64,000 nucleotides of DNA from a virus. Lineage: Duplodnaviria; Caudoviricetes. Below the pieces are notes generated by a model. The model was given only the letters and a program-made list of their open reading frames with translations. It ran no database searches and was not told where the DNA came from. Below, in pieces: positions 21,535-63,302 of the stretch. The position numbers and the translations under genes are program-made. The stretch lies in IMG/VR virus record IMGVR_UViG_3300021256_000085, positions 21,736 through 85,735 of that record; one strand, written 5' to 3'. Each line of letters starts with the position of its first letter. Position 1 is the first letter of the stretch.

Positions 21535-21987
21535 ATGAATATCAAAAAGTATTTTTCAAATTTATTTTGTTTACATGAAAAATTAGAATTTGTTGCAAAT
21601 ATATATGGGGACCAAATAAATATCCATCATGGGAAACGTTCTGTTTGGAAATGTAAATCTTGTGGTAAATTGATTTATAAAGATAAGTTATATTATAGAG
21701 ATAGTTTATCTGAATTCTTAAATAAATTATCAGAACAATATTATACTAATTTACAAAATAAATGGGAACAGGAACATAAGCAAACGTTTGACAAAATAAC
21801 CAATCAAATGTGTGAAGCCGCAAGTAATGGTAAATGGTCAATAGATTATGTTATATCATTTAATGAGAATGATTGGTATAAATTTAAAAAATATTGGGAC
21901 AAGCAAAAAATTCGTATAGTTGATGTTGAAGTATCAAATCCGGATGTTGAAATTAAATTATATAAATTTAAATTTGTATGGACGTAA
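21535..21987 (+). CDS. hypothetical protein with Cys/His zinc-binding N-terminus
   Basis: FCLHE...WKCKSCGK. Confidence 0.6.
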   Translation: MNIKKYFSNLFCLHEKLEFVANIYGDQINIHHGKRSVWKCKSCGKLIYKDKLYYRDSLSEFLNKLSEQYYTNLQNKWEQEHKQTFDKITNQMCEAASNGKWSIDYVISFNENDWYKFKKYWDKQKIRIVDVEVSNPDVEIKLYKFKFVWT

Positions 21988-44219: not shown

Positions 44220-44390
44220 CTTTTTTAGTTTTTTATATTTTTTGATTTTTTTATCAACAATATCTAATGGTTGTAGAATATCACCAGATCCAACTTCTCC
44301 ATTTATCCCTGGAGGACTTACATTTCCCATTCCGGTAGTATTCATTGGAGTTGCAAATAATTCTTCTAAATAAGTCTTAAGATTTTTCAT
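44202..44390 (-). CDS. small protein with leader MKNLKTYLEE
   Basis: ORF track; shared leader. Confidence 0.6.
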   Translation of the reverse strand: MKNLKTYLEELFATPMNTTGMGNVSPPGINGEVGSGDILQPLDIVDKKIKKYKKLKKKMRIN

Positions 44391-46059
44391 TTGATTTGTT
44401 TTCTTTATGATTTCTTTCTTCAGCAGCTTTTTTAGATTTTTCTATTGCTAATTGGTTGAATTCATATAGAAGACTATCATCTAATATATGTTTTTGTCCT
44501 GGATTAATCAAATATCCCATCTTACTCATTACATCTCGATTAATAAGTACTTTTTGTTTTTTATTACGATTATCTACTAAAGCAAATTCCGCATTTAATA
44601 ATTTACGTGAACCAATTCTTATACATGGAATTTCCACAGTTACTCTTTCTTCAACATTTTGACCAACTATAGCATTTGATTGTCCAACCAATTTAAAAGT
44701 ATATTCTTTTCCTTCTATTGTTGCAAAAACTTTATGACCTTTTTGCTCAACTTTCTCACAACCAATAGTAGATGCTTTAGCACCATTACCGGTATCAAAC
44801 TTAGCTTCAAACTCAACTTCTGATTCATCGGTATCTGATAAAGTAAAATACACATTTTCTAGATATCCAATAGCTTTTGGCTCTAATACTAATTGATTAA
44901 TATCATTAATCTCATTTAATAGTATTTCCATAAAATTATCACCAATCACTTCTGAAATACCATCAGTACCAGGTGAAGCATTATATTCAAGAACTACATT
45001 ATCACCTATCTCTGGATTACTATCATGTACTAAAGGCATAATATCTACAGCACACCATGGCATACGAGATATCTTAGCTACTTTCAAAGCAATCTCTTCT
45101 TGTTCTGGAGTTAATTTAACTGATTCAGCGGTTGCACCTAAAGAAACATTAGAACGGAAATCTCCACTAATCTTCACACGTTTCATAGCAGCTAATATTT
45201 TTTGTTCTGTACGCATAGTCAATACATGCACACGAATATCACCACCATCAGCTTCTTCTTTCTTTTGTAACAATAATTCACGTTCAGGATCTATTGCAAA
45301 TATAGCTTGAAGAATAGAAAGAATAGTTTTTCCGTTCACCATAAATACACCAGTTCCACCATGGCCATCAAGAATTTTAATGACATATTCTTTTTTCTTG
45401 TCAGCATTCTCATCTTCACCTACATCTTTATAAATCAATTTAAGTTTCTTTTGTAATGACTCTTCTCCTTTAGCGATATCATTAGCTGAAAGTAATGTGA
45501 ATTTAGGTTGTGGAATATTATATCTTTCCATCAATACCGCTGAAGTGTATTTATTAGATGCACGTTGAGCAGCTTGTATAGGATTAAGAACAAAAAATCC
45601 CCAATCTTGAAGTTCTTTAATAAGTTCAATACACTCTTCAGAATCTTGGGCACCTAAACGAGTGATTACAATAGTATCAACATTTGATTGAACATCAATA
45701 GTATATTTATTGACATTATCATGAAACTTGATTTTTTTATCTGTAGCTTTGTAATCTATTTCTTCAGCAATAAAAGGATATAGTTTTACTCCTTTACCTT
45801 TAATAGCTTCTTCTAAATTCTTCAATGTTTTGTTAGATTTAGAATCTCTATCATTTGTAAAGAAAATAATATTCTTGAAGAAAAAATCCTTCTCATCATT
45901 TTCATCATTCTCTTCAACAATCAAATTATCTGAATTTTGATTTTCCTTTTCTAGAAGTAACTTATTTTCTTCTTTAAGTTTCTTATTAACTACTTTAAAT
46001 ACTTCAGAAATCACCTTTGGATCTCTATAATCAATATATTCATTTGAAAATTTCTTCAT
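44377..46059 (-). CDS. RimK-family ATP-grasp ligase fused to C-terminal retropepsin-like protease domain
   Basis: ASNKY...IPQPKF; VIKILDGHGGTGV; DIRVHV; GDFRSNVSLGA; AVDI; LEYNASPG; C-terminal AKFDTGNG...VLINRD. Confidence 0.85.
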   Translation of the reverse strand: MKKFSNEYIDYRDPKVISEVFKVVNKKLKEENKLLLEKENQNSDNLIVEENDENDEKDFFFKNIIFFTNDRDSKSNKTLKNLEEAIKGKGVKLYPFIAEEIDYKATDKKIKFHDNVNKYTIDVQSNVDTIVITRLGAQDSEECIELIKELQDWGFFVLNPIQAAQRASNKYTSAVLMERYNIPQPKFTLLSANDIAKGEESLQKKLKLIYKDVGEDENADKKKEYVIKILDGHGGTGVFMVNGKTILSILQAIFAIDPERELLLQKKEEADGGDIRVHVLTMRTEQKILAAMKRVKISGDFRSNVSLGATAESVKLTPEQEEIALKVAKISRMPWCAVDIMPLVHDSNPEIGDNVVLEYNASPGTDGISEVIGDNFMEILLNEINDINQLVLEPKAIGYLENVYFTLSDTDESEVEFEAKFDTGNGAKASTIGCEKVEQKGHKVFATIEGKEYTFKLVGQSNAIVGQNVEERVTVEIPCIRIGSRKLLNAEFALVDNRNKKQKVLINRDVMSKMGYLINPGQKHILDDSLLYEFNQLAIEKSKKAAEERNHKENKSNEKS

Positions 46060-54825: not shown

Positions 54826-55908
54826 ATGACTGAATATGACAAATTAAACAAAGTCTTAGAAGGCAAATCAATATTATATATACCTATTTATTCTTGTTTT
54901 GACTATCAAACTGGTAATTTGAATTTTAAAGCTGATGGAAATATTAACAGATTTTTATCAACTTTTTATCATTGTAACAAATATAAGAAATTAGATATAT
55001 TGGTTCCTCCATCTGGAAATGTTAAAGAATGGTTTGAAAATATTTGTAAAACTTATTTACAAAATTGTAATTTAATATCTTGCCCATTAATAGTTAAATC
55101 AGCAAAGGTTGAAAGAAGTATTGAGTTTAGTTATAAAATTCTAGATTTTTTTAAAACCAATAACATAGATATAAATTCATATAATTATATTATTTGTGAA
55201 GCACAACATGTATTTTTAAGGTTATATAATATGGTATCATATAATCTATTTTTAAGATCATATGATATTGGAATTCAAGATAAATTGATTTATTGGTGTC
55301 CGGTTTGTGCTACTGATAATAAAAGTAGAGATTTTCTTGAACCATATAAAGAAATTGATAAATTTATTTTTAGTGTGGCTAAGAATGTTATTGTTGCTTC
55401 TAATGATCAAGTTAAATATTATAATAACTATCATTTTGGTGGTAATCTAATACAAATTGAATCATTAATTGATAGACAACTTCCATTTTTTAAGTATTAT
55501 ATAGATTGGAATATTGTTCATTTTATCAATGGATTCCATATCAAGAATAATATATTCTTACCATTTAGATTAACTGATATGGGATATCAAACTCAAAAAA
55601 TTGTTGATTATCTATATAATGATTATAATTCAAATCATACTTTTAAAGTATTTTATACAAATCCAAATAATTGTGATATATATCAATTTGCAAATAATGA
55701 CTCATATAAGAAATTATTCTTAGATAAATATTTTATAGAAGTACCAAAAGATAGAGATATTTTTTATTCTATAATTGATTATTGTAATGTAATTATTCCA
55801 TATTTTGAAGACACTGAATTTATTTGTCATGCGGCTATTGATGAGTTTAAATATGGAAATTGTATTGTTTGTAAAAATTTAGATGAATTCAAAAATATTT
55901 TAAGTTAA
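54826..55908 (+). CDS. putative glycosyltransferase (GT-B-like), DNA-modification candidate
   Basis: Two Rossmann-like halves (SILYIPIYS...; IFLPFRLTD...VFYTNPN); first gene of the sugar-nucleotide operon. Call rests mainly on context. Confidence 0.4.
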   Translation: MTEYDKLNKVLEGKSILYIPIYSCFDYQTGNLNFKADGNINRFLSTFYHCNKYKKLDILVPPSGNVKEWFENICKTYLQNCNLISCPLIVKSAKVERSIEFSYKILDFFKTNNIDINSYNYIICEAQHVFLRLYNMVSYNLFLRSYDIGIQDKLIYWCPVCATDNKSRDFLEPYKEIDKFIFSVAKNVIVASNDQVKYYNNYHFGGNLIQIESLIDRQLPFFKYYIDWNIVHFINGFHIKNNIFLPFRLTDMGYQTQKIVDYLYNDYNSNHTFKVFYTNPNNCDIYQFANNDSYKKLFLDKYFIEVPKDRDIFYSIIDYCNVIIPYFEDTEFICHAAIDEFKYGNCIVCKNLDEFKNILS

Positions 55909-55915
55909 TATATAT

Positions 55916-56551
55916 ATGGAAAATAAAATTCAAAAAATGTTTGATTTGTTTTTTGACTTAGATTCCAACCAAGAATTAAATAAAATCAAACAATTAGTTA
56001 TTAATAATCCAGATATCTTGAATAAAGGTTTTATATTTACTGGAGTAGGTAAAAACTGGTATATTTGTGAAAAACTAAACAAGACTTTTCTTTCTATGGG
56101 ACTAAAATCTCAAGCATTAGATCCGGTTCACGCTTTGCATGGTGATTTAGGTATGGTTGATGGTCAAATTATATTTTTTATTTCTAAATCAGGAAATACC
56201 GAAGAGCTTATCAAATTGGCAAAGACATTAAGAGCTTTAAAAAATCAACATATTAAAGATTGTATTATGGTTGGTTTTTGCTTAAATAATCAATTTGAGA
56301 ATAGTAGATTGTATGATTATTTGATAATTCCAAGTAAAAGGTTTCCAAAAGACCAAATATATGAATTTGATGAAAAGAATATTGTTCCAACTTTATCTAT
56401 AAATATTATGCAAATGGTTTTGGATAAATTTGGAGTTGAAATATTTGAATCTTATGACTATCTTGTAAATAATTATAAATATAACCATTTAGCCGGAGAG
56501 AATGGCCGTAGGCTTGGTGTAGATAAATTATTAAAAGAATTTACCAAATGA
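55916..56551 (+). CDS. kdsD: SIS-domain arabinose-5-phosphate isomerase (KdsD/GutQ-like, no CBS domains)
   Basis: FTGVGKNWYI...ALHGDLGMV...ISKSGNTEEL. Confidence 0.85.
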   Translation: MENKIQKMFDLFFDLDSNQELNKIKQLVINNPDILNKGFIFTGVGKNWYICEKLNKTFLSMGLKSQALDPVHALHGDLGMVDGQIIFFISKSGNTEELIKLAKTLRALKNQHIKDCIMVGFCLNNQFENSRLYDYLIIPSKRFPKDQIYEFDEKNIVPTLSINIMQMVLDKFGVEIFESYDYLVNNYKYNHLAGENGRRLGVDKLLKEFTK

Positions 56552-58065
56552 ATAAATTAAAGAACATTATTATCGTAGCTGGTGGAGAGAATACCCGTTT
56601 TAATGAAATGAATATTTTCCCAAAGATATTGTTACCAACATTGAATGATCCATCTATATTATCATATGATTGTAAATTATTTGAAAACTATAATATCTAT
56701 TTGATTATTAATGATAGATATGAATTAATGACTAAACAATATATTAAGAAAAACCAATTAGATATTAATATATTGGTGAGTCATAATCATAATGGTAGTG
56801 CAAATACAATATATGATTTGATAAATGAATTACCAAAAGAAGATATTCTTTTTGTTTGGTCAGATCTTATATTAGATAAAATTGGAGTAGAAGATATTGA
56901 AAATTATATTCAGACTATATCTGATAATAATGTAATTTTTACTTATGATGGTAAATATAGATTCAAAGCAACTAATGATAGTATTCAATTATCTGAATAT
57001 GGTAATATACCAGGAATTTATTATTGTAAAAACTTAGATAAAATTTTTAATAATTACAAAGTTAAAAACAATTATGATTATTTAGAAATTATTAAAGATA
57101 ATTTTTTAAATGATTTTACAATTCATGAATATAAAGGACAAATCATTGAATTTAGAGATTTGAAAATTTATCTAGATTATTATAAACCACAAATTAAGAA
57201 AACTAATACAAGATTTTTCAATAAGATGATTGTTGAGTCAAATATGTTGACAAAACAATGTATTAATAAAGATTATAATCATCTTATTGAACGAGAAATT
57301 AATTGGTATAATACTTGTAAAGATAATAATTATTATAATATTCCAACAATTTATGAGACTAATAAAGAAAATCATTTTATCAAGATGGAATATTTAGATG
57401 GTTATCAAAATATATATGAATTTATCAAACAATGTAATGATGAAGAATTCAATATATTTATGAAATCATATCTTAAAGCTGTTGAAAATCTTCATCAATT
57501 AAATCAGGTTAAAGTAGATTATCAACAAGCTTATGAAGATTTTTATATAGAATTTTATGATAAAGTGATTAAGCGGTGTAATAATATTTCTGGTATTTTA
57601 TATAATTATGATGAGAATAAACTTAAAGAAATATTAAATAAAGCATTTAATAGAATTATTGAATTAATTGGTAAAAATAATCTAAATAACTATTCATTTA
57701 CCCATGGAGACTTAAATGGAAGTAATGTAATGTATAATCAAAATACCCATGATATTAAGTTTATTGATCCTCGCGGATATTTTGGTAAAACTCAACTTAT
57801 TGGTCCTGCATCTTATGATTATGCAAAAATCATGTATTGTCTTTCTGGATATGATGATTTTAACAATGGTAATTCAAGATTTACAAAAGATTGGTATGAT
57901 GAACCCCAAGAATTACGTCATTATGAATTTGGAGAAAACCAAAAACTATATTATATTATGGTAGGTATTATTTGGGTGGCATTAGCTGAATATATATCTC
58001 AAGATGTGTTTAAAGCGAATATAGCTTATAGACATGGATTAAAAATTTTGAATAGTATATTATGA
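56548..58065 (+). CDS. bifunctional sugar nucleotidyltransferase + APH/choline-kinase-like kinase
   Basis: N-terminal IIVAGGENTRF...FPKILLP...VWSD; C-terminal HGDLNGSNVMY...FIDPRG. Confidence 0.85.
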   Translation: MNKLKNIIIVAGGENTRFNEMNIFPKILLPTLNDPSILSYDCKLFENYNIYLIINDRYELMTKQYIKKNQLDINILVSHNHNGSANTIYDLINELPKEDILFVWSDLILDKIGVEDIENYIQTISDNNVIFTYDGKYRFKATNDSIQLSEYGNIPGIYYCKNLDKIFNNYKVKNNYDYLEIIKDNFLNDFTIHEYKGQIIEFRDLKIYLDYYKPQIKKTNTRFFNKMIVESNMLTKQCINKDYNHLIEREINWYNTCKDNNYYNIPTIYETNKENHFIKMEYLDGYQNIYEFIKQCNDEEFNIFMKSYLKAVENLHQLNQVKVDYQQAYEDFYIEFYDKVIKRCNNISGILYNYDENKLKEILNKAFNRIIELIGKNNLNNYSFTHGDLNGSNVMYNQNTHDIKFIDPRGYFGKTQLIGPASYDYAKIMYCLSGYDDFNNGNSRFTKDWYDEPQELRHYEFGENQKLYYIMVGIIWVALAEYISQDVFKANIAYRHGLKILNSIL

Positions 58066-58613
58066 AAAAATTATATGTAATTGAAGGATTTGATAGATCT
58101 GGTAAAGATACATTAATGAATGACTTATCTAAAGAAAATCTATCGAATACTTATATTTATTTTAATAATTTAGAAGGATTACCTAAATATGATAAAGAAC
58201 AAGATAATTTTTTAGTTTGGTTAAATAAGTTTATAGATAAACAAACTAATGATTTGATTGAACTATTCAAGAAATATAATAATATAGTAATGACAAGATT
58301 GATTATTTCTGATGAAGTATATAGTTCATTATTTAATCGAGAACATACAACTATTAAATATATGGAACGATTAAATGATATAGAAATTTATAATTATTGT
58401 ATTCTATTCTTGAATTATAATGAGTATTTAAATAGAATTAAACATCTTGAAAATGAAGAGGTTCAATATCATCAAAGAGATTTTGAACGAATTAATGATT
58501 TATATGAAGAGAAATTAATTTCATCAAACTATAAATACTATATTAATTATATTAAGTCTGATACAACTCCTAATGATATTTTACAAGATTTTATTTCTTA
58601 TATTAAAAATTAA
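58062..58613 (+). CDS. deoxynucleoside monophosphate kinase (thymidylate kinase-like)
   Basis: YVIEGFDRSGKDT P-loop; MTRLIISDEVYSSLFNR. Confidence 0.75.
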   Translation: MKKLYVIEGFDRSGKDTLMNDLSKENLSNTYIYFNNLEGLPKYDKEQDNFLVWLNKFIDKQTNDLIELFKKYNNIVMTRLIISDEVYSSLFNREHTTIKYMERLNDIEIYNYCILFLNYNEYLNRIKHLENEEVQYHQRDFERINDLYEEKLISSNYKYYINYIKSDTTPNDILQDFISYIKN

Positions 58614-58618
58614 AAACT

Positions 58619-59641
58619 ATGAAAGAATTTAATAAAATGTTGATTTGTGGACCATGTGCTGCTGAATCAGATATTCAATTAAAAACGATTGCTAAACGAT
58701 TAAAGGAAAATAATATTAATTGTTTGTTTAGAGCTGGTATTTGGAAACCTCGTACAAAACCTGGTACATTTGAAGGTTTGGGTGAAATTGCTATTAAGTG
58801 GATGTGTGAGATTCGTGAACAGTATGGATTTAAAATTGGTTGGGAAGTGGCAACTAAAGAACATGTTGATATTTCTTTAAAATATAATCCAGATTTTCTT
58901 TGGATTGGGGCCCGTACAACTGTTAATCCATTCTTGATAGATATTTTAGCCAAATCATTATCAAATACTAATATAGATGTATATGTCAAGAATCCATCTA
59001 ATTCAGATTATAGTCTTTGGGAAGGTTCAATTGAAAGATTATTGAAATATAATGTTAATGTTGTTGGGGTTATTCATCGTGGATTTTCTTCACAAAATTT
59101 AGCTGATTACCGTAATGCACCAATGTGGTCAATTCCAATTAAGATTAAGAATAAATTTCCGAATTTGTTGTTATTGGGAGATCCTAGTCATATGGGTGGT
59201 CATGATTTTTTGATTAAAGAAATTTCACAAAAAATGATGAATTTAAATTATGATGGTCTTATGATTGAAGTTCATAATAATCCTAAAGAAGCATGGACCG
59301 ATTCTAAACAACAAATTACCGCAAATACTTTAAGAGAAATATTAGATAATTTAGAAATACCAATAGAAAATACAAGTAATGGTTTAATTGAATATCGATT
59401 ACAAATTGATGAGATTGATGATCAAATTATGTCATTAATTAAACAAAGATTTGAAATCACCAATAAAGTTGGGCAATGGAAGAAAGAACATAATGTATCT
59501 ATTTTCCAGAAAAATCGATATGAAGAAATATTAAACAAAAATAAAGTAAGATCTAATCGATATAATTTAGATATTGATTTGATTAATAGTATTTTTAATA
59601 TTATTCATGAGAAATCTGTAGAACAACAATTAAATGAATAA
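58619..59641 (+). CDS. bifunctional DAHP synthase (type I-beta) / chorismate mutase (AroQ), Bacteroidota type
   Basis: CGPCAAES; RAGIWKPRTKPG (KPRT, not the KANRS of KdsA); WIGART; HRGF; DPSH; C-terminal YRLQIDEIDDQI...RF...VGQWKK...FQKNR. Confidence 0.92.
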   Translation: MKEFNKMLICGPCAAESDIQLKTIAKRLKENNINCLFRAGIWKPRTKPGTFEGLGEIAIKWMCEIREQYGFKIGWEVATKEHVDISLKYNPDFLWIGARTTVNPFLIDILAKSLSNTNIDVYVKNPSNSDYSLWEGSIERLLKYNVNVVGVIHRGFSSQNLADYRNAPMWSIPIKIKNKFPNLLLLGDPSHMGGHDFLIKEISQKMMNLNYDGLMIEVHNNPKEAWTDSKQQITANTLREILDNLEIPIENTSNGLIEYRLQIDEIDDQIMSLIKQRFEITNKVGQWKKEHNVSIFQKNRYEEILNKNKVRSNRYNLDIDLINSIFNIIHEKSVEQQLNE

Positions 59642-59675
59642 ACTTATGAATTAAAAATTCAACTAAATATTTAAT

Positions 59676-60161
59676 ATGAAGAAAATTATAATATCAGATT
59701 GTGATGGTATATTGACAAATGGTAAATCAATATATACATATAATGGTAAAACCGCTAAAGTCTATGGTGCATTTGACACCGAAGCTATTAGGACTGCACA
59801 TGATTTAGGATGGGAATTTTTATTTGTATCTGATGATCGTCATGGATGGAATATTACTAAAGCTAGACTTGATAACTATAAAGAAAATGGATTATGTGAA
59901 TATCAAATTGCTTCTCCAGAAGAAAGAGAGGAATTAGTTAAAGAATATCAAAATAAAGGATATTATGTTGTTTTTGTTGGAGATTCGATTTCAGATCTAA
60001 AAGCTGGATTAACCGCAAATAGGTTTTGTACAACTTCAAATGCATGGGATAGTATTCTAGATATGTGTGATTTTATATCCGAAAGAGAAGGAGGAAATGG
60101 TGGATTTGCAGAGATTATTTATGATTGTTTAGATAAATTGAATGAAAATTATCAACAATAA
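59676..60161 (+). CDS. HAD-family sugar-phosphate phosphatase (KdsC-like)
   Basis: SDCDGILTNG; FVGDSISD; EGGNGGFAEII. Confidence 0.85.
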   Translation: MKKIIISDCDGILTNGKSIYTYNGKTAKVYGAFDTEAIRTAHDLGWEFLFVSDDRHGWNITKARLDNYKENGLCEYQIASPEEREELVKEYQNKGYYVVFVGDSISDLKAGLTANRFCTTSNAWDSILDMCDFISEREGGNGGFAEIIYDCLDKLNENYQQ

Positions 60162-60202
60162 TTTTCTATATTATAATATGAAATATATTTATTATTGTTT
60201 TT

Positions 60203-61291
60203 ATGATAAATCAATTTAAAGTTGGTTGTAATTTTGATTGGGAATTAATTGATAAAGCATCTCAATTAAATGATAAATACAAAAATCAAGCAGTTATTAA
60301 AGAGTTTTTTGCAAGTCCAAGTTCTTCTGCTCCAATGACAGCTAGACCTGATTGGAGATTACCTAATATGCCAGATAAAGATTTTGAAAAATATGTAAGA
60401 TTATGTTTGGATAATAATATTTATTTTAATGTTGTGTTAAATTCAATACAACCATATATGACTAAACCAAACATGGTACAACATAAACAAGAAATTCAAG
60501 ATTATGTAAAATGGCTTGAAGATATTGGTGTATATAGAATAACATTTGCAAATCCAATGATGGCAATGTTTATTCGTGAAGTATCTGATATTGAATTAGA
60601 AGCAAGTTGTATATTACATATTGATACACCAACTCAAATGAAATATCTCCATGATACATTAGGTGTAAATAAATTTTGTAATAGTATTCTTAAAAATCGT
60701 AGTCGTGATTTCTTGATTAATTGTGCAAATTATTGTAATGAGAATGGATTGATTCTTGAATTGTTAGCTAATGAGTTTTGTTATAATGCTTCATCTGATT
60801 ATGCTACTCATTGTGTATATCGTGATTCATGTTATCTTTGTCATGCAACATGTAAGACTAAAGAAGAGTCAATGTTATATAATAATTATCCAATGAAATA
60901 TTGTATGTCAAGTCGTAATGGAAATCAAGAACAATGGTTACGAAGTCGTTGGATTCGTCCTGAAGATTTGAAGTATTATAATAATATTGGAATTAATTAT
61001 TTTAAAGTATCTGGAAGAACTGGTGGAACAGATTATTTAGTATCAGTATTAGAGTCATATATGAATCAAAAATATAATGGTAATCTTCTAGGTCTTTGGA
61101 AACCATTAGAGACTATATATAATGGTAAAAAGGAATATGAACAAGAATTGATTGATAATATTCCAAATGATAAATTAGATGGGTTCTTAGACCATTGGTT
61201 TGATAAAAATTTTGAATGTGAGAATCAAATTTGTGGAACCACATGTACATATTGCCGAGATTTTTATAATCAAAAAATAAAAGGAGCTTAA
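60203..61291 (+). CDS. peptidase U32 family protein, predicted Fe-S hydroxylase
   Basis: FNVVLN; GVYRITFANP; LEASCIL; ELLANEFC...HCVYRDSC Cys cluster; FKVSGR. Confidence 0.8.
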   Translation: MINQFKVGCNFDWELIDKASQLNDKYKNQAVIKEFFASPSSSAPMTARPDWRLPNMPDKDFEKYVRLCLDNNIYFNVVLNSIQPYMTKPNMVQHKQEIQDYVKWLEDIGVYRITFANPMMAMFIREVSDIELEASCILHIDTPTQMKYLHDTLGVNKFCNSILKNRSRDFLINCANYCNENGLILELLANEFCYNASSDYATHCVYRDSCYLCHATCKTKEESMLYNNYPMKYCMSSRNGNQEQWLRSRWIRPEDLKYYNNIGINYFKVSGRTGGTDYLVSVLESYMNQKYNGNLLGLWKPLETIYNGKKEYEQELIDNIPNDKLDGFLDHWFDKNFECENQICGTTCTYCRDFYNQKIKGA

Positions 61292-61309
61292 TTAAAAGCT
61301 CCTTTTTTT
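61279..61309. terminator. bidirectional terminator closing the modification operon
   Basis: AAAAGGAGCTT / AAGCTCCTTTT. Confidence 0.8.
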
Positions 61310-61310
61310 A

Positions 61311-63302
61311 TTATTGATTTGTATTAAGTTTGAATATTGCAATTGGTAAATATTGATTTATGTAATTTTCATGAATAAATCCTAATGTTCCTTTCATTTT
61401 AATATGTAAGCTTAAATTTTTATAAGCTGATATACTACTAATCTTAAATACTAATCCTTGTGGATATAATGTATAAATATGATTTGACTCAAAATAATAA
61501 TTCCATTCATCAGGATTAGTTGTATTATCTCTAAAACCAATTTTACATTCACCTAATACTTCATTTGTAAATTCATTTATCAAGATTGATTTATCGGATT
61601 CATAAGTTTCTGAATTAGGATCTAAACTATCAAATAAATTATCATGCCAAATTTGTACATAATCAAATCTCAATACTGGTGTATAGTTAGTATAGTTAGA
61701 TGATTCAATAATTCCGGTATTCAAATAAATATTATTGTCATCATTATTACCGGTTGAATATATTTGTACATCTAATTGGACTTCATTATTATCTAAATCA
61801 GTTACATGTACATAAGGATTCTCACTATTATAACTAAACATATTTGCATTTATTTGCTCACATTGATCTTCAGGAAATTGTTCAATTGTAAATGTTGAAG
61901 ATGAATTATCTGAATCCTTTTCTTTCATTACCATACCTTTAATAATGACATAATTATCATATACCTCCATAACCGCTGCTTCAGAATCATTTTGAGCAGT
62001 TTGATATGATTTTATACCATAAGGTAATGGACGACTTAATGAAGGTAAATGAACATTATATGATTTATTTGATTTAGTGATATTAATATTATGATCTAAT
62101 TTTTCCCAATTCCATTTATAATGTGAATGTCCACAAAACCATAAATTATTTGAATATTTTTCCATTAATTGTTGAATAAATTTACCTTGGTCACCTCTTA
62201 GAATATCTATATGTGTTTCGGCATAAGGATAATAATTATCACTATTGGTCATATAATTGTTTTCTTGGTGATAATTACCAGCTTTATCCATTAACATCAA
62301 ATGGGTAAATATAAAACAACGATGATCTTTATATTCTTCTAAAATCTCTTCAAGACAACGTAAAGTTTGTGGATGATATAAATGATAGTCATTTGAATAA
62401 TCTACTGATTGATTGACTAATAACTCATCTTCATTTAACATTCTACAATTATGGGTATTGTAATCATCTGGATTATTCCAACCATATTCTACATTTAGAT
62501 AAATATATACATCAAATTTATCTTCTCCAAAATATTTCTTAAAATAAAAACTAGTTCCTTCACCGGATTCTTCAGTATGATAATAGTCATCATTATCTCT
62601 GTATTGCTCATAATCTTTAAAATAAATTATCTCATATTCATTATTTGGATTTATAGCAGATACACTTTTCCATAACTCATGATATTTATATTTAGGTTTA
62701 GTATCATGGTTACCAGAACAAGTAAAAATAGATAAGTTTGGTGCATAAGTATCTATACATAACTTATAGTTCTTTAAATGAGCTGACCAATCCGTGGAGA
62801 TATCACCAGAACAACTTACAAAATCTACACCTTCATCCATAAAAGTATGTAAAGCATTTTGAAGATCCTCTGAATATTCACTTCCATCATCATTTCCAAT
62901 AGTAGTTGGGTCTTGGTCACTTTCATCAGTATCATTATAATGGATATCACTCATTAATCCAATTTTATATAATGGTTCTTTGTTGTTCTTATATAAATCT
63001 TTAATTGGAATAGATTCTTGCAAGTCATGATTATAGATATTATATACATTAATATATTCTACATCATTAGGCACAACATAGAAATTCTTGTTGATATAGT
63101 TCTTGTCTAATGGTAAATATTGTGGTAATATATTTTTATCTTTGTCAGCATATCGATATGAATAGTTTTCAGTACCATCATAATTGAAATTTATATCAAT
63201 AGTTTGACGATTAATCAACAAAGTCAATGGATATCGTTTGTTAATATTTTTTAAAGCTTCTAATTGTTCTACATAAGAATCAAATACTTGAATATATTGC
63301 AT
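61311..63302 (-). CDS. metallophosphoesterase (calcineurin-like) with extra N- and C-terminal domains
   Basis: SDIH; SGDIS; GNHD; FTHL; GHSH. Confidence 0.8.
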   Translation of the reverse strand: MQYIQVFDSYVEQLEALKNINKRYPLTLLINRQTIDINFNYDGTENYSYRYADKDKNILPQYLPLDKNYINKNFYVVPNDVEYINVYNIYNHDLQESIPIKDLYKNNKEPLYKIGLMSDIHYNDTDESDQDPTTIGNDDGSEYSEDLQNALHTFMDEGVDFVSCSGDISTDWSAHLKNYKLCIDTYAPNLSIFTCSGNHDTKPKYKYHELWKSVSAINPNNEYEIIYFKDYEQYRDNDDYYHTEESGEGTSFYFKKYFGEDKFDVYIYLNVEYGWNNPDDYNTHNCRMLNEDELLVNQSVDYSNDYHLYHPQTLRCLEEILEEYKDHRCFIFTHLMLMDKAGNYHQENNYMTNSDNYYPYAETHIDILRGDQGKFIQQLMEKYSNNLWFCGHSHYKWNWEKLDHNINITKSNKSYNVHLPSLSRPLPYGIKSYQTAQNDSEAAVMEVYDNYVIIKGMVMKEKDSDNSSSTFTIEQFPEDQCEQINANMFSYNSENPYVHVTDLDNNEVQLDVQIYSTGNNDDNNIYLNTGIIESSNYTNYTPVLRFDYVQIWHDNLFDSLDPNSETYESDKSILINEFTNEVLGECKIGFRDNTTNPDEWNYYFESNHIYTLYPQGLVFKISSISAYKNLSLHIKMKGTLGFIHENYINQYLPIAIFKLNTNQ

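Follow-up and report, generated by a model that had tools for sequence, protein, structure and literature searches.

A phage operon from the ruminant gut suggests a possible route to a modified DNA base that needs no oxygen and has not been described

The closest described counterparts of the locus analysed here are the arabinosyl-5-hydroxycytosine (ara-hC) DNA hypermodification systems of Straboviridae. The published 5hodCMP synthase of these systems is a ThyA-type, O2- and FMN-dependent enzyme with D169N, arabinosyltransferase 1 of RB69 and DLP3 glycosylates 5-hydroxycytosine in DNA, and the shielding of DNA by such glycosylation has been shown for both phages (PMC13326640). Prephenate-dependent hydroxylases of the U32 family form a second point of reference and comprise RlhA (23S rRNA ho5C2501), TrhP (tRNA ho5U) and UbiU/UbiV (PMC5727448, PMC6599085, PMC10990095, bioRxiv 10.1101/587956). 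Formation of ho5C by RlhA involves Fe-S and prephenate (PMC5727448). In the UbiUV pathway, prephenate was identified as the oxygen donor by 18O labelling; as of 2024, no U32 protein had been demonstrated to hydroxylate a substrate directly in vitro (PMC10990095). For the CmoA/CmoX carboxymethylcytosine system of Synechococcus phage S-B43, prephenate supply was named as an open question (PMC12783734).

We analysed a stretch of 64,000 nt (the window), positions 21,736 to 85,735 of IMG/VR record IMGVR_UViG_3300021256_000085 (Caudoviricetes), an 85.7 kb contig covering about 30% of the genome of a large rumen phage. A first-pass annotation had described seven co-oriented, tightly coupled genes closed by one terminator, and this layout was recovered: seven plus-strand ORFs of 360, 211, 505, 183, 340, 161 and 362 aa occupy 54826-61291, with intergenic gaps of 7, -4, -4, 5, 34 and 41 nt in that order, and the flanking genes on either side lie on the minus strand. 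The features are:

54826..55908, + strand: GT-B glycosyltransferase, 360 aa; homolog of RB69 gp46:47 / DLP3 gp79 (arabinosyltransferase 1) by fold and profile
55916..56551, + strand: arabinose-5-phosphate isomerase (SIS, KpsF/KdsD-like), 211 aa; phrog_5670, E 8e-32; counterpart of RB69 gp55
56548..58065, + strand: bifunctional nucleotidyltransferase-sugar kinase, 505 aa; phrog_4098, E 2e-69; homolog of AfhE / RB69 gp52:53
58062..58613, + strand: Tmk-like dNMP kinase (RB69 gp45-like), 183 aa; phrog_761, E 5e-8
58619..59641, + strand: type I-beta DAHP synthase with C-terminal AroQ chorismate mutase (DAHPS-CM), 340 aa; Pfam DAHP_synth_1, E 4e-25, and CM_2, E 5e-20
59676..60161, + strand: KdsC/YrbI-like HAD phosphatase, 161 aa; TIGR01670, E 2e-12, below cut-off
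60203..61291, + strand: U32-family TIM-barrel protein, 362 aa; Peptidase_U32 PF01136, 31.4 bits (cut-off 22.4); phrog_5757, E 5e-123
61279..61306, no single strand: bidirectional intrinsic terminator (hairpin of 11 bp flanked by U tails) that includes the stop codon of U32 in its span

The hairpin (-16.8 kcal/mol, z -5.1) can serve as a terminator for both strands. The identical set of seven genes is present in many further, independent phage contigs from rumen and gut, so the operon is not a chance arrangement. Bovine and sheep gut metagenomes contain the stretch; the habitat is the anaerobic ruminant gut, in line with the anaerobic setting proposed earlier, and the host is probably a member of the Bacteroidota. 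Metatranscriptome contigs from two studies span no more than short parts of the operon, and likewise of the neighbouring gene, and do not demonstrate transcription, and tetranucleotide counts (CTAG 0.39, GATC 0.53, CG 0.49) did not discriminate between models.

Five of the operon genes match the published ara-hC kit of RB69, DLP3 and HY126. The glycosyltransferase had no match in HMM searches of Pfam, PHROGs and NCBIfam or in tblastn of GenBank phages, and was placed solely through fold search and profile-profile alignment. Its AF2 model (pLDDT 91.9) has a GT-B fold whose best PDB match in Foldseek is MshA 3c4q, also published as the top match for gp46:47 (PMC13326640); the best viral structures in BFVD came from phages KARL-1, Muldoon and RB69 (ORF047c). 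Alignment with the Aat family extended over the full length (hhalign probability 99.4, E 2.5e-21), and the protein initially called a putative glycosyltransferase pending a fold check can now be described as a homolog of RB69-type DNA arabinosyltransferases. The arabinose supply set (A5P isomerase, AfhE-like kinase-nucleotidyltransferase and HAD phosphatase) is present, with a phosphatase from a different HAD subfamily. Relative to Mosigvirus GADS24, the isomerase is 33% identical (E 2e-23) and the nucleotidyltransferase-kinase 26% identical across 532 aa (E 1e-41). The KdsC-like phosphatase accompanies the latter enzyme even in clusters without DAHPS or isomerase, and is probably an arabinose-1,5-bisphosphate 5-phosphatase replacing AfhF. 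The parallel first drawn with GmhA/HldE/GmhB captured a similar logic, but the sugar branch is the published Afh/RB69 UDP-arabinofuranose route (PMC13326640). The Tmk-like kinase, found in nearly all clusters with U32 and glycosyltransferase and also in sister hydroxymethylase cassettes, probably phosphorylates modified dCMP, an activity that we infer.

The kit enzyme that requires O2 is missing from the operon, where U32 and DAHPS-CM take its place; this pattern suggests that the modified base is made by an undescribed route independent of oxygen. No ThyA-type synthase was found in the operon or in the 85.7 kb contig; as the genome is so incomplete, another hydroxylase elsewhere cannot be excluded for the window phage. 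Eleven related records carry U32 and the glycosyltransferase and have a completeness rating of 90% or more, and terminal repeats close four of these; none of the 11 had a ThyA-type synthase (PF00303); the positive control detected one in 15 of 15 Straboviridae records. These 11 records include close kin (G002, G006, G012), the CheckV completeness of linear records is possibly overestimated (for example G005 and G038, 128 kb), and several metagenome contigs (L056, L058, L059, L069, L072, L081, L201, L203) lay outside the whole-record searches. ThyX was also absent from four of the 11.

The window's U32 protein belongs to a clade of 23 lineages (SH-aLRT 99), none of which has a ThyA-type synthase in the flanks retrieved. 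The expected co-occurrence of U32 with chorismate mutase (CM) or DAHPS-CM in phages was seen across lineages, including 16 of the 23 in this clade; the clade counts rest on a quick tree, and no direction of transfer is claimed. In many ara-hC phages of enterobacteria, U32 is directly followed by a small AroQ CM that scores over the Pfam cut-off. CM and DAHPS were both absent from 12 of 25 glycosyltransferase lineages without the ThyA-type synthase (flanks of at least 3 kb), and Mosigvirus GADS24 has neither. Three phages of Acinetobacter, which is strictly aerobic, possess the ThyA-type synthase and lack both U32 and CM. One E. coli Dhakavirus is also without U32, so the oxygen pattern is not strict. 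Sister phages picked by other genes carry, in the same slot beside the same RimK-like gene, Tmk with a dCMP-hydroxymethylase-type ThyA and sugar genes, and U32, the Aat-type glycosyltransferase and CM are all missing from them. In phages of 41-49 kb, the module is reduced to a pyrophosphatase-like gene, Tmk, glycosyltransferase and U32 beside DNA polymerase.

The U32 protein is the candidate Fe-S, prephenate-dependent dCMP 5-hydroxylase, with cluster binding and catalysis both inferred. Its model matches U32 structure 5d88 with a Z of 17.4 (next match 13.0), and it aligns over its whole length with the UbiU/RlhA/TrhP profile (hhalign probability 97.6-97.9); a phmmer search of PDB sequences returned no match. 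C193, C204 and C234 are invariant and C210 nearly so, the four being conserved in 98-100% of 129 homologs. They lie in the region equivalent to that of the canonical CX6CX15-16CX3/4C motif, but their spacing, CX10CX5CX23C, differs from it. A second cysteine tetrad is located C-terminally (339/344/348/351), which brings the invariant or near-invariant cysteines to eight. The gene has a dN/dS of about 0.09 (against relative L050). It is not new in itself: proteins of the RB69 gp50 type, about 50% identical, occur in 222 GenBank phage records, with no role assigned there. The protein does not fit the RlhA subfamily (U32 plus DUF3656, acting on 23S rRNA): it has a single domain in 362 aa, and a Pfam search gave no DUF3656 match.

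The aldolase of the operon has a KPRT motif at 43-46, scores 124.7 bits with the DAHPS model TIGR01361 against 46.8 bits with the KDO8PS model TIGR01362, and finds exclusively DAH7PS among its PDB matches; it does not fit KdsA (KDO8P synthase), which would be expected to have a KANRS-type motif and its best score with the KDO8PS model. Its closest named cellular homologs are from Bacteroidota (43-47%), and across 37 homologs from phages and bacteria there is no variation in C13, the KPRT motif, H191, E217 and D228, nor in R260, R277, K288, R300, S333 and Q337 of the CM domain. Judged by motif, metal ligands and catalytic residues, the protein is a Bacteroidota-type type I-beta DAHP synthase fused to AroQ. 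The suggestion that the phage has its own prephenate supply holds in part: of the eight steps, only the first and the last are covered. Relatives L070 and L072 encode almost all or all of the steps, the L072 cluster containing AroB, AroK, AroQ-AroA, AroC, AroE and DAHPS-CM. Five of 19 viral DAHPS-CM loci adjoin U32, one more has U32 elsewhere in the genome, and ten have a CmoA-like user of prephenate close by. Where U32 is missing, viral DAHPS-CM genes are for the most part neighbours of CmoA.

Gene identities, folds, homologies and co-occurrence are direct observations, and on them we base a mechanism that we regard as probable: prephenate-dependent, O2-independent 5-hydroxylation of dCMP followed by DNA arabinosylation. 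No chemistry or virion-DNA data exist for it, and the identity of the sugar is inferred. DAHPS-CM, as its family suggests, would drive flux into the host shikimate pathway and convert chorismate to prephenate. The new step would be hydroxylation of dCMP at C5 by the U32 Fe-S enzyme, with prephenate as oxygen donor and phenylpyruvate and CO2 as by-products; this role is an inference from comparative genomics, and the activity itself is inferred. The Tmk-like kinase would then phosphorylate 5-hydroxy-dCMP for DNA synthesis. By homology to the HY126/RB69 route, isomerase, kinase, HAD phosphatase and nucleotidyltransferase would turn ribulose-5-P into NDP- (probably UDP-) arabinofuranose, and the GT-B enzyme would place the sugar on the 5-OH in DNA as a shield against restriction and CRISPR nucleases. 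Cytosine in phage DNA would thereby become arabinosyl-5-hydroxycytosine, or a related glycosyl-5-hydroxycytosine, without O2.

With slightly more reserve, we also favour a broader proposal, in which phage U32 is a widespread O2-independent, prephenate-dependent dCMP 5-hydroxylase, acting as the sole C5-hydroxylase in phages of gut anaerobes and as an anaerobic back-up in many RB69-like phages, and in which CM, DAHPS and even a whole shikimate pathway were recruited to feed DNA modification. A literature search for phage U32 with prephenate, chorismate mutase or anaerobic cytosine hydroxylase yielded no relevant paper, and the coupling, not known to the first-pass annotation as described, was not found proposed elsewhere; this search did not extend to He et al. 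2026 or Mahler et al. 2025, either of which could contain a comment on U32.

U32 could instead act after replication on C in DNA, as an RlhA-like enzyme whose partial or sequence-specific hydroxylation precedes glycosylation. The characterised nucleic-acid U32 enzymes, RlhA and TrhP, do work on polymers (PMC5727448), and a profile search detected no PF08761-type dCTPase in large or jumbo relatives, which leaves dCTPase presence unsettled and makes the dCMP-level route less certain there. We nevertheless find this account unlikely, if still to be kept in mind: a Tmk-like kinase is nearly always in the cluster, small phages have the pyrophosphohydrolase-like gene immediately upstream, the sister cassette replaces U32 with a dCMP-level hydroxymethylase-type enzyme, and no extra nucleic-acid-binding domain was matched in U32 (Pfam and structure search). 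Another possibility, which we likewise doubt, is an accessory redox function, such as sugar tailoring or cofactor recycling, with the 5-OH or 5-hydroxymethyl group supplied by an enzyme that has escaped recognition; DAHPS-CM would then be an auxiliary metabolic gene with no connection to the modification. It would suit the Table 1 label of RB69 gp50, 'sugar or heterocycle reductase' (PMC13326640), the coexistence of U32 with an aerobically sufficient synthase in RB69-type phages, and the ThyX homologs in seven of the 11 ThyA-less genomes. Yet the ThyX genes checked (G001, G002, G007) encode the ordinary RHR motif and are not part of the core cluster, small phages keep U32 with glycosyltransferase and Tmk although no arabinose-supply genes are adjacent and both ThyA and ThyX are absent, and CM adjoins U32 in unrelated lineages, one cluster holding the whole shikimate pathway.

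Isomerase, DAHP_synth_1-family aldolase and KdsC-like phosphatase represent the three families of KDO synthesis, and together with the nucleotidyltransferase they might yield CMP-KDO or a heptulosonate sugar for transfer to the host surface or virion proteins. This is very improbable given the KPRT motif, CM fusion and far better DAHPS than KDO8PS score of the aldolase, the presence of KdsC with the AfhE homolog in clusters without the aldolase, and the homology of the glycosyltransferase to a DNA arabinosyltransferase. We give least credence to U32 as a hydroxylase of tRNA or rRNA, from host or phage, that adjusts translation, its position in the cluster being fortuitous. RNA is the substrate of RlhA and TrhP, but U32 is present in all glycosyltransferase-selected loci with sufficient downstream flank, is the best conserved operon gene relative to three of four relatives, and is frequently an immediate neighbour of DNA polymerase genes.

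O2 is required by the published route to 5-hydroxycytosine in DNA, yet many phages equipped with the downstream kit inhabit the gut and rumen, which are anoxic. A U32/prephenate route, if true, would explain how these phages modify their DNA and would give a role to the unassigned gp50 of RB69. Modification, and hence resistance to restriction and CRISPR, would rely on different enzymes with and without oxygen, and phage genes for DAHP synthase and chorismate mutase would have to be seen not as generic auxiliary metabolic genes but as suppliers for DNA modification. With prephenate, the oxygen sources of viral base modification, so far water and O2, would number three, and a single-domain U32 protein with dCMP as a small-molecule substrate would make U32 catalysis directly testable in vitro.

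The operon shares its logic with T4 gp42 and the glucosyltransferases, in which a C5 handle is set on dCMP before DNA is glycosylated. The T4 handle is CH2OH, derived from methylene-THF and water, and a ThyA-fold enzyme of that kind was not found in the operon. With the ara-hC systems of Straboviridae (RB69 gp45-gp55, DLP3 gp76-83 and HY126 Afh; Lee et al. NAR 2026, PMC13326640; also He et al. Nat Chem Biol 2026 and Mahler et al. 2025, here as cited in PMC13326640), it has in common the A5P isomerase, kinase-nucleotidyltransferase, HAD phosphatase, Tmk-like kinase and arabinosyltransferase-1 homolog, and with the RB69 type also the U32 gene. Unlike that kit, the operon and its complete relatives are without the ThyA-type FMN/O2-dependent 5hodCMP synthase, and the operon has a KdsC-type instead of an AfhF-type phosphatase and an embedded DAHPS-CM; habitat (anaerobic), probable host (Bacteroidota) and gene order (not of Straboviridae type) differ as well. 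The S-B43 CmoA/CmoX system resembles our model as a phage DNA modification that consumes prephenate, but there prephenate gives CO2 to SAM rather than oxygen, with neither U32 nor glycosylation. With RlhA, TrhP and UbiUV, the phage U32 protein shares the TIM barrel, a KIEGR-like motif (KVSGR in the phage), invariant cysteines in the same region and a linkage to prephenate production. It is only 13-18% identical to them and differs in cysteine spacing, in its C-terminal cysteine tetrad and in lacking DUF3656; it is also phage-encoded, and its predicted substrate is a free deoxynucleotide.

The seven co-oriented genes of the first-pass annotation, running from a putative glycosyltransferase to a U32 protein, are present as described: seven plus-strand ORFs (54826-61291) with intergenic gaps of 7, -4, -4, 5, 34 and 41 nt, flanked on both sides by genes of opposite orientation and closed by a terminator.

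61279-61306: strong bidirectional terminator, serving the 3' end of the operon
61311-63302, minus strand: calcineurin-like metallophosphoesterase (663 aa), converging on this shared terminator and not seen adjoining the operon in the relatives examined

The source record is a linear viral contig of 85.7 kb, rated about 30% complete, with baseplate and neck genes. The window stretch was found in bovine and sheep gut metagenomes from several studies, and long contigs of a 2025 bovine sample span nearly the whole operon. Since no Shine-Dalgarno sequences were found in the operon's start regions, and the closest named cellular proteins to its DAHP synthase-chorismate mutase (DAHPS-CM) are from Bacteroidota, we infer that the host likely belongs to this phylum. 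An MKx[LI]xx[YF]IxE-type leader, resembling T4 capsid-targeting sequences, opens many unrelated proteins within 1496-48794, and CTAG (0.39), GATC (0.53) and CG (0.49) are under-represented across the whole contig.

The sugar and transferase genes of the operon are an already known kit, that of the arabinosyl-5-hydroxycytosine (ara-hC) phages. Proteins with about 50% identity to the window's U32 protein occur in 222 GenBank phage records; all 60 among the matches listed come from RB69-like phages of facultative anaerobes, in which the homologue is located within the ara-hC cluster. There, 5-hydroxy-dCMP is formed by a ThyA homolog with O2 and flavin, and the sugar follows the route Ru5P -> Ara5P -> Ara1,5P -> Ara1P -> UDP-Araf (Lee et al. 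2026, PMC13326640). Two window enzymes, the isomerase (33% identity) and the kinase-nucleotidyltransferase (26%), are homologous to members of this route. The first ORF (54826..55908) had no HMM match; the glycosyltransferase proposed for it is upheld by a confident structure model with a GT-B fold, with a KARL-1 protein and RB69 ORF047c among its closest viral structures, and by a full-length alignment to the arabinosyltransferase-1 (Aat) family (probability 99.4). The KdsC-like phosphatase is assigned by gene association to the sugar branch, because it still accompanies the kinase-nucleotidyltransferase in clusters without DAHPS and isomerase. A KDO8P synthase identity for the operon's aldolase was rejected, its KPRT motif being that of a DAHP synthase. 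The window operon holds a single glycosyltransferase; operons of L050, L051, L058, L063, the L006 group and L201 contain additional glycosyltransferase-like genes (cluster c17, about 410 aa; a GT8-Stealth protein in L201), which suggests di- or tri-glycosylation in these relatives.

What the kit lacks here is the O2-dependent hydroxylase. We analysed 140 loci, nearly all gathered by U32 similarity. The PF00303 profile, which detects the divergent 5hodCMP synthase in 15 of 15 Straboviridae control records, found no ThyA-family gene in any of the 11 records that carry U32 and glycosyltransferase and have a rated completeness of 90% or more; terminal repeats close four of these records. ThyX, which can provide dTMP, was matched in seven of these 11; four had neither ThyA nor ThyX. 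In a quick tree of U32 proteins dereplicated at 85%, the window's clade comprises 23 lineages (SH-aLRT 99), none with a D169N synthase within the fetched flanks. Aat-type glycosyltransferases require a C5 hydroxyl, as established for RB69 and DLP3, so in the absence of the ThyA-type synthase another enzyme must provide it. Judged by gene content, U32 is the sole conserved candidate. In phages of 41-49 kb the module consists only of a pyrophosphohydrolase-like gene, Tmk, glycosyltransferase and U32, adjoining DNA polymerase. In a distant virus (L046:10001-14908), whose U32 is 33% identical, U32 occurs together with a ThyA homolog that has D169N/N177D, the 5hodCMP-synthase signature; this is a second lineage with both enzymes.

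The U32 model (pLDDT 92.6) had its best match in 5d88, a U32 structure (Z 17.4, against 13.0 for the next hit), and the phage profile aligned over the whole barrel with UbiU, RlhA and TrhP (probability 97.6-97.9). C193, C204, C210 and C234 are kept in 98-100% of 129 homologs and fall in the part of the protein where UbiU has its cluster ligands, with different spacing; a second Cys tetrad lies at the C-terminus. U32 is the best conserved operon gene against three of four relatives (in the comparison with L050, dN is about 0.09 and dS about 1). Bacterial and MAG members also occur in the same U32 clade (L123, L128, L134, L136-L139). The cellular U32 gene is preceded by three conserved genes, encoding a GP88-like protein, a guanylate kinase fused to a methyltransferase, and an uncharacterised protein of 267 aa; this group may be a cellular nucleotide-modification or defence cluster.

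RlhA, which makes 5-hydroxycytidine, requires an Fe-S cluster and prephenate (PMC5727448), and in the UbiUV pathway prephenate was shown to be the oxygen donor, with no direct in vitro activity by then (PMC10990095). The anticipated co-occurrence was recovered: of the 23 lineages, 16 have CM or DAHPS-CM in the vicinity of U32. In many enterobacterial ara-hC phages a separate AroQ CM, scoring above the Pfam threshold, follows directly downstream of U32, and eight of these records encode an AroG-type DAHPS elsewhere. In two relatives, shikimate genes are embedded in the modification cluster itself, in L072 as AroB, AroK, AroQ-AroA, AroC, AroE and DAHPS-CM, with U32/Tmk on one side and the arabinose genes on the other, and in L070 as a similar set.

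L072:12228-17216: complete shikimate pathway
L070:914-11529: nearly complete shikimate pathway

The "own prephenate supply" attributed to the window holds only for the first and last steps, which are encoded there; the middle steps are left to the host. Since 12 of 25 glycosyltransferase-bearing lineages without the synthase had no CM nearby, the supply gene is optional. Among 19 viral DAHPS-CM loci (three truncated or incomplete), five adjoin U32, one has U32 elsewhere in the genome, and 10, largely of one lineage, have a CmoA-like Cx-SAM synthase nearby (best match TIGR00740, below cut-off). CmoA is the other known prephenate-consuming nucleic-acid-modification enzyme, and phage S-B43 uses it for DNA (PMC12783734). 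By these counts, phage DAHPS-CM mostly accompanies a prephenate consumer.

L214, L216-L218, L222, L224, L226, L228-L230 (IMG/VR): DAHPS-CM near CmoA-like Cx-SAM synthase

In L229 and L227 a Dcm-like methyltransferase adjoins DAHPS-CM, an arrangement like that of a CmoA/CmoX carboxymethylcytosine system that brings its own supply of prephenate. In L217 and kin the place of this methyltransferase is taken by a ParB-like protein of 511 aa.

The mechanism we consider most probable, for which no chemistry has been shown, is that U32 would hydroxylate dCMP using prephenate and without O2, after which the product would be phosphorylated, incorporated into DNA and then arabinosylated. Two main rivals were weighed against it. 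U32 could act on DNA instead of dCMP, which we regard as unlikely, or it could have an accessory redox role, which ranks just behind. Both U32 and the ThyA-type synthase occur in many phages of facultative anaerobes, and the work on the RB69 pathway gives its U32 protein, gp50, no label beyond "sugar or heterocycle reductase" and makes no mention of prephenate or chorismate (Lee et al. 2026, PMC13326640). Two natural comparisons agree with U32 as an alternative to the synthase. The ThyA-type synthase is present, and U32 and CM are absent, in three phages whose host, Acinetobacter, is a strict aerobe; an E. coli Dhakavirus without U32 is an exception to this oxygen pattern. The second comparison involves three sister phages, chosen via other genes near the operon and not via U32, and the gene beside which such cassettes are found.

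44377-46059, minus strand: RimK-like ATP-grasp protein of the window
L251:6481-15558 (G049), L252:5664-11207 (G051) and L246 (G050): cassettes of the sister rumen jumbo phages

No U32, Aat-type glycosyltransferase or CM was found in these phages (one rated 98% complete, the other two 55% and 68%), which carry Tmk, a ThyA homolog and sugar-nucleotide genes in place of the U32 cassette. The ThyA homolog has the signature of a dCMP hydroxymethylase (D169 retained, D at 177), and none of the 20 U32- and glycosyltransferase-bearing records searched, the window's own included, has a hydroxymethylase of this type. In two of the three the cassette adjoins a RimK-like gene that shares 72-73% identity with the one in the window; the same slot holds the U32 cassette in L003 and others. 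We infer from this gene arrangement that either cassette seems able to replace the other as an anaerobic route to a C5 handle. The sister cassettes also include nucleotidyltransferase, HAD or KdsC-like phosphatase, epimerase-like and glycosyltransferase-like genes, and G049 and G050 have two ThyA homologs each. In relatives, either cassette type is divergently oriented to the RimK-like gene; the window operon lies 8.8 kb away from it.

The proposed coupling of U32 and prephenate in DNA modification had been thought undescribed, and our literature search, which covered recent ara-hC papers incompletely, found no paper proposing it. With its activity inferred, the operon functions in the same way as the ara-hC system of RB69. 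Strictly it does not belong to that system, since it lacks the defining ThyA-type synthase, and its phosphatase is KdsC-like where the known route has an AfhF-like enzyme.
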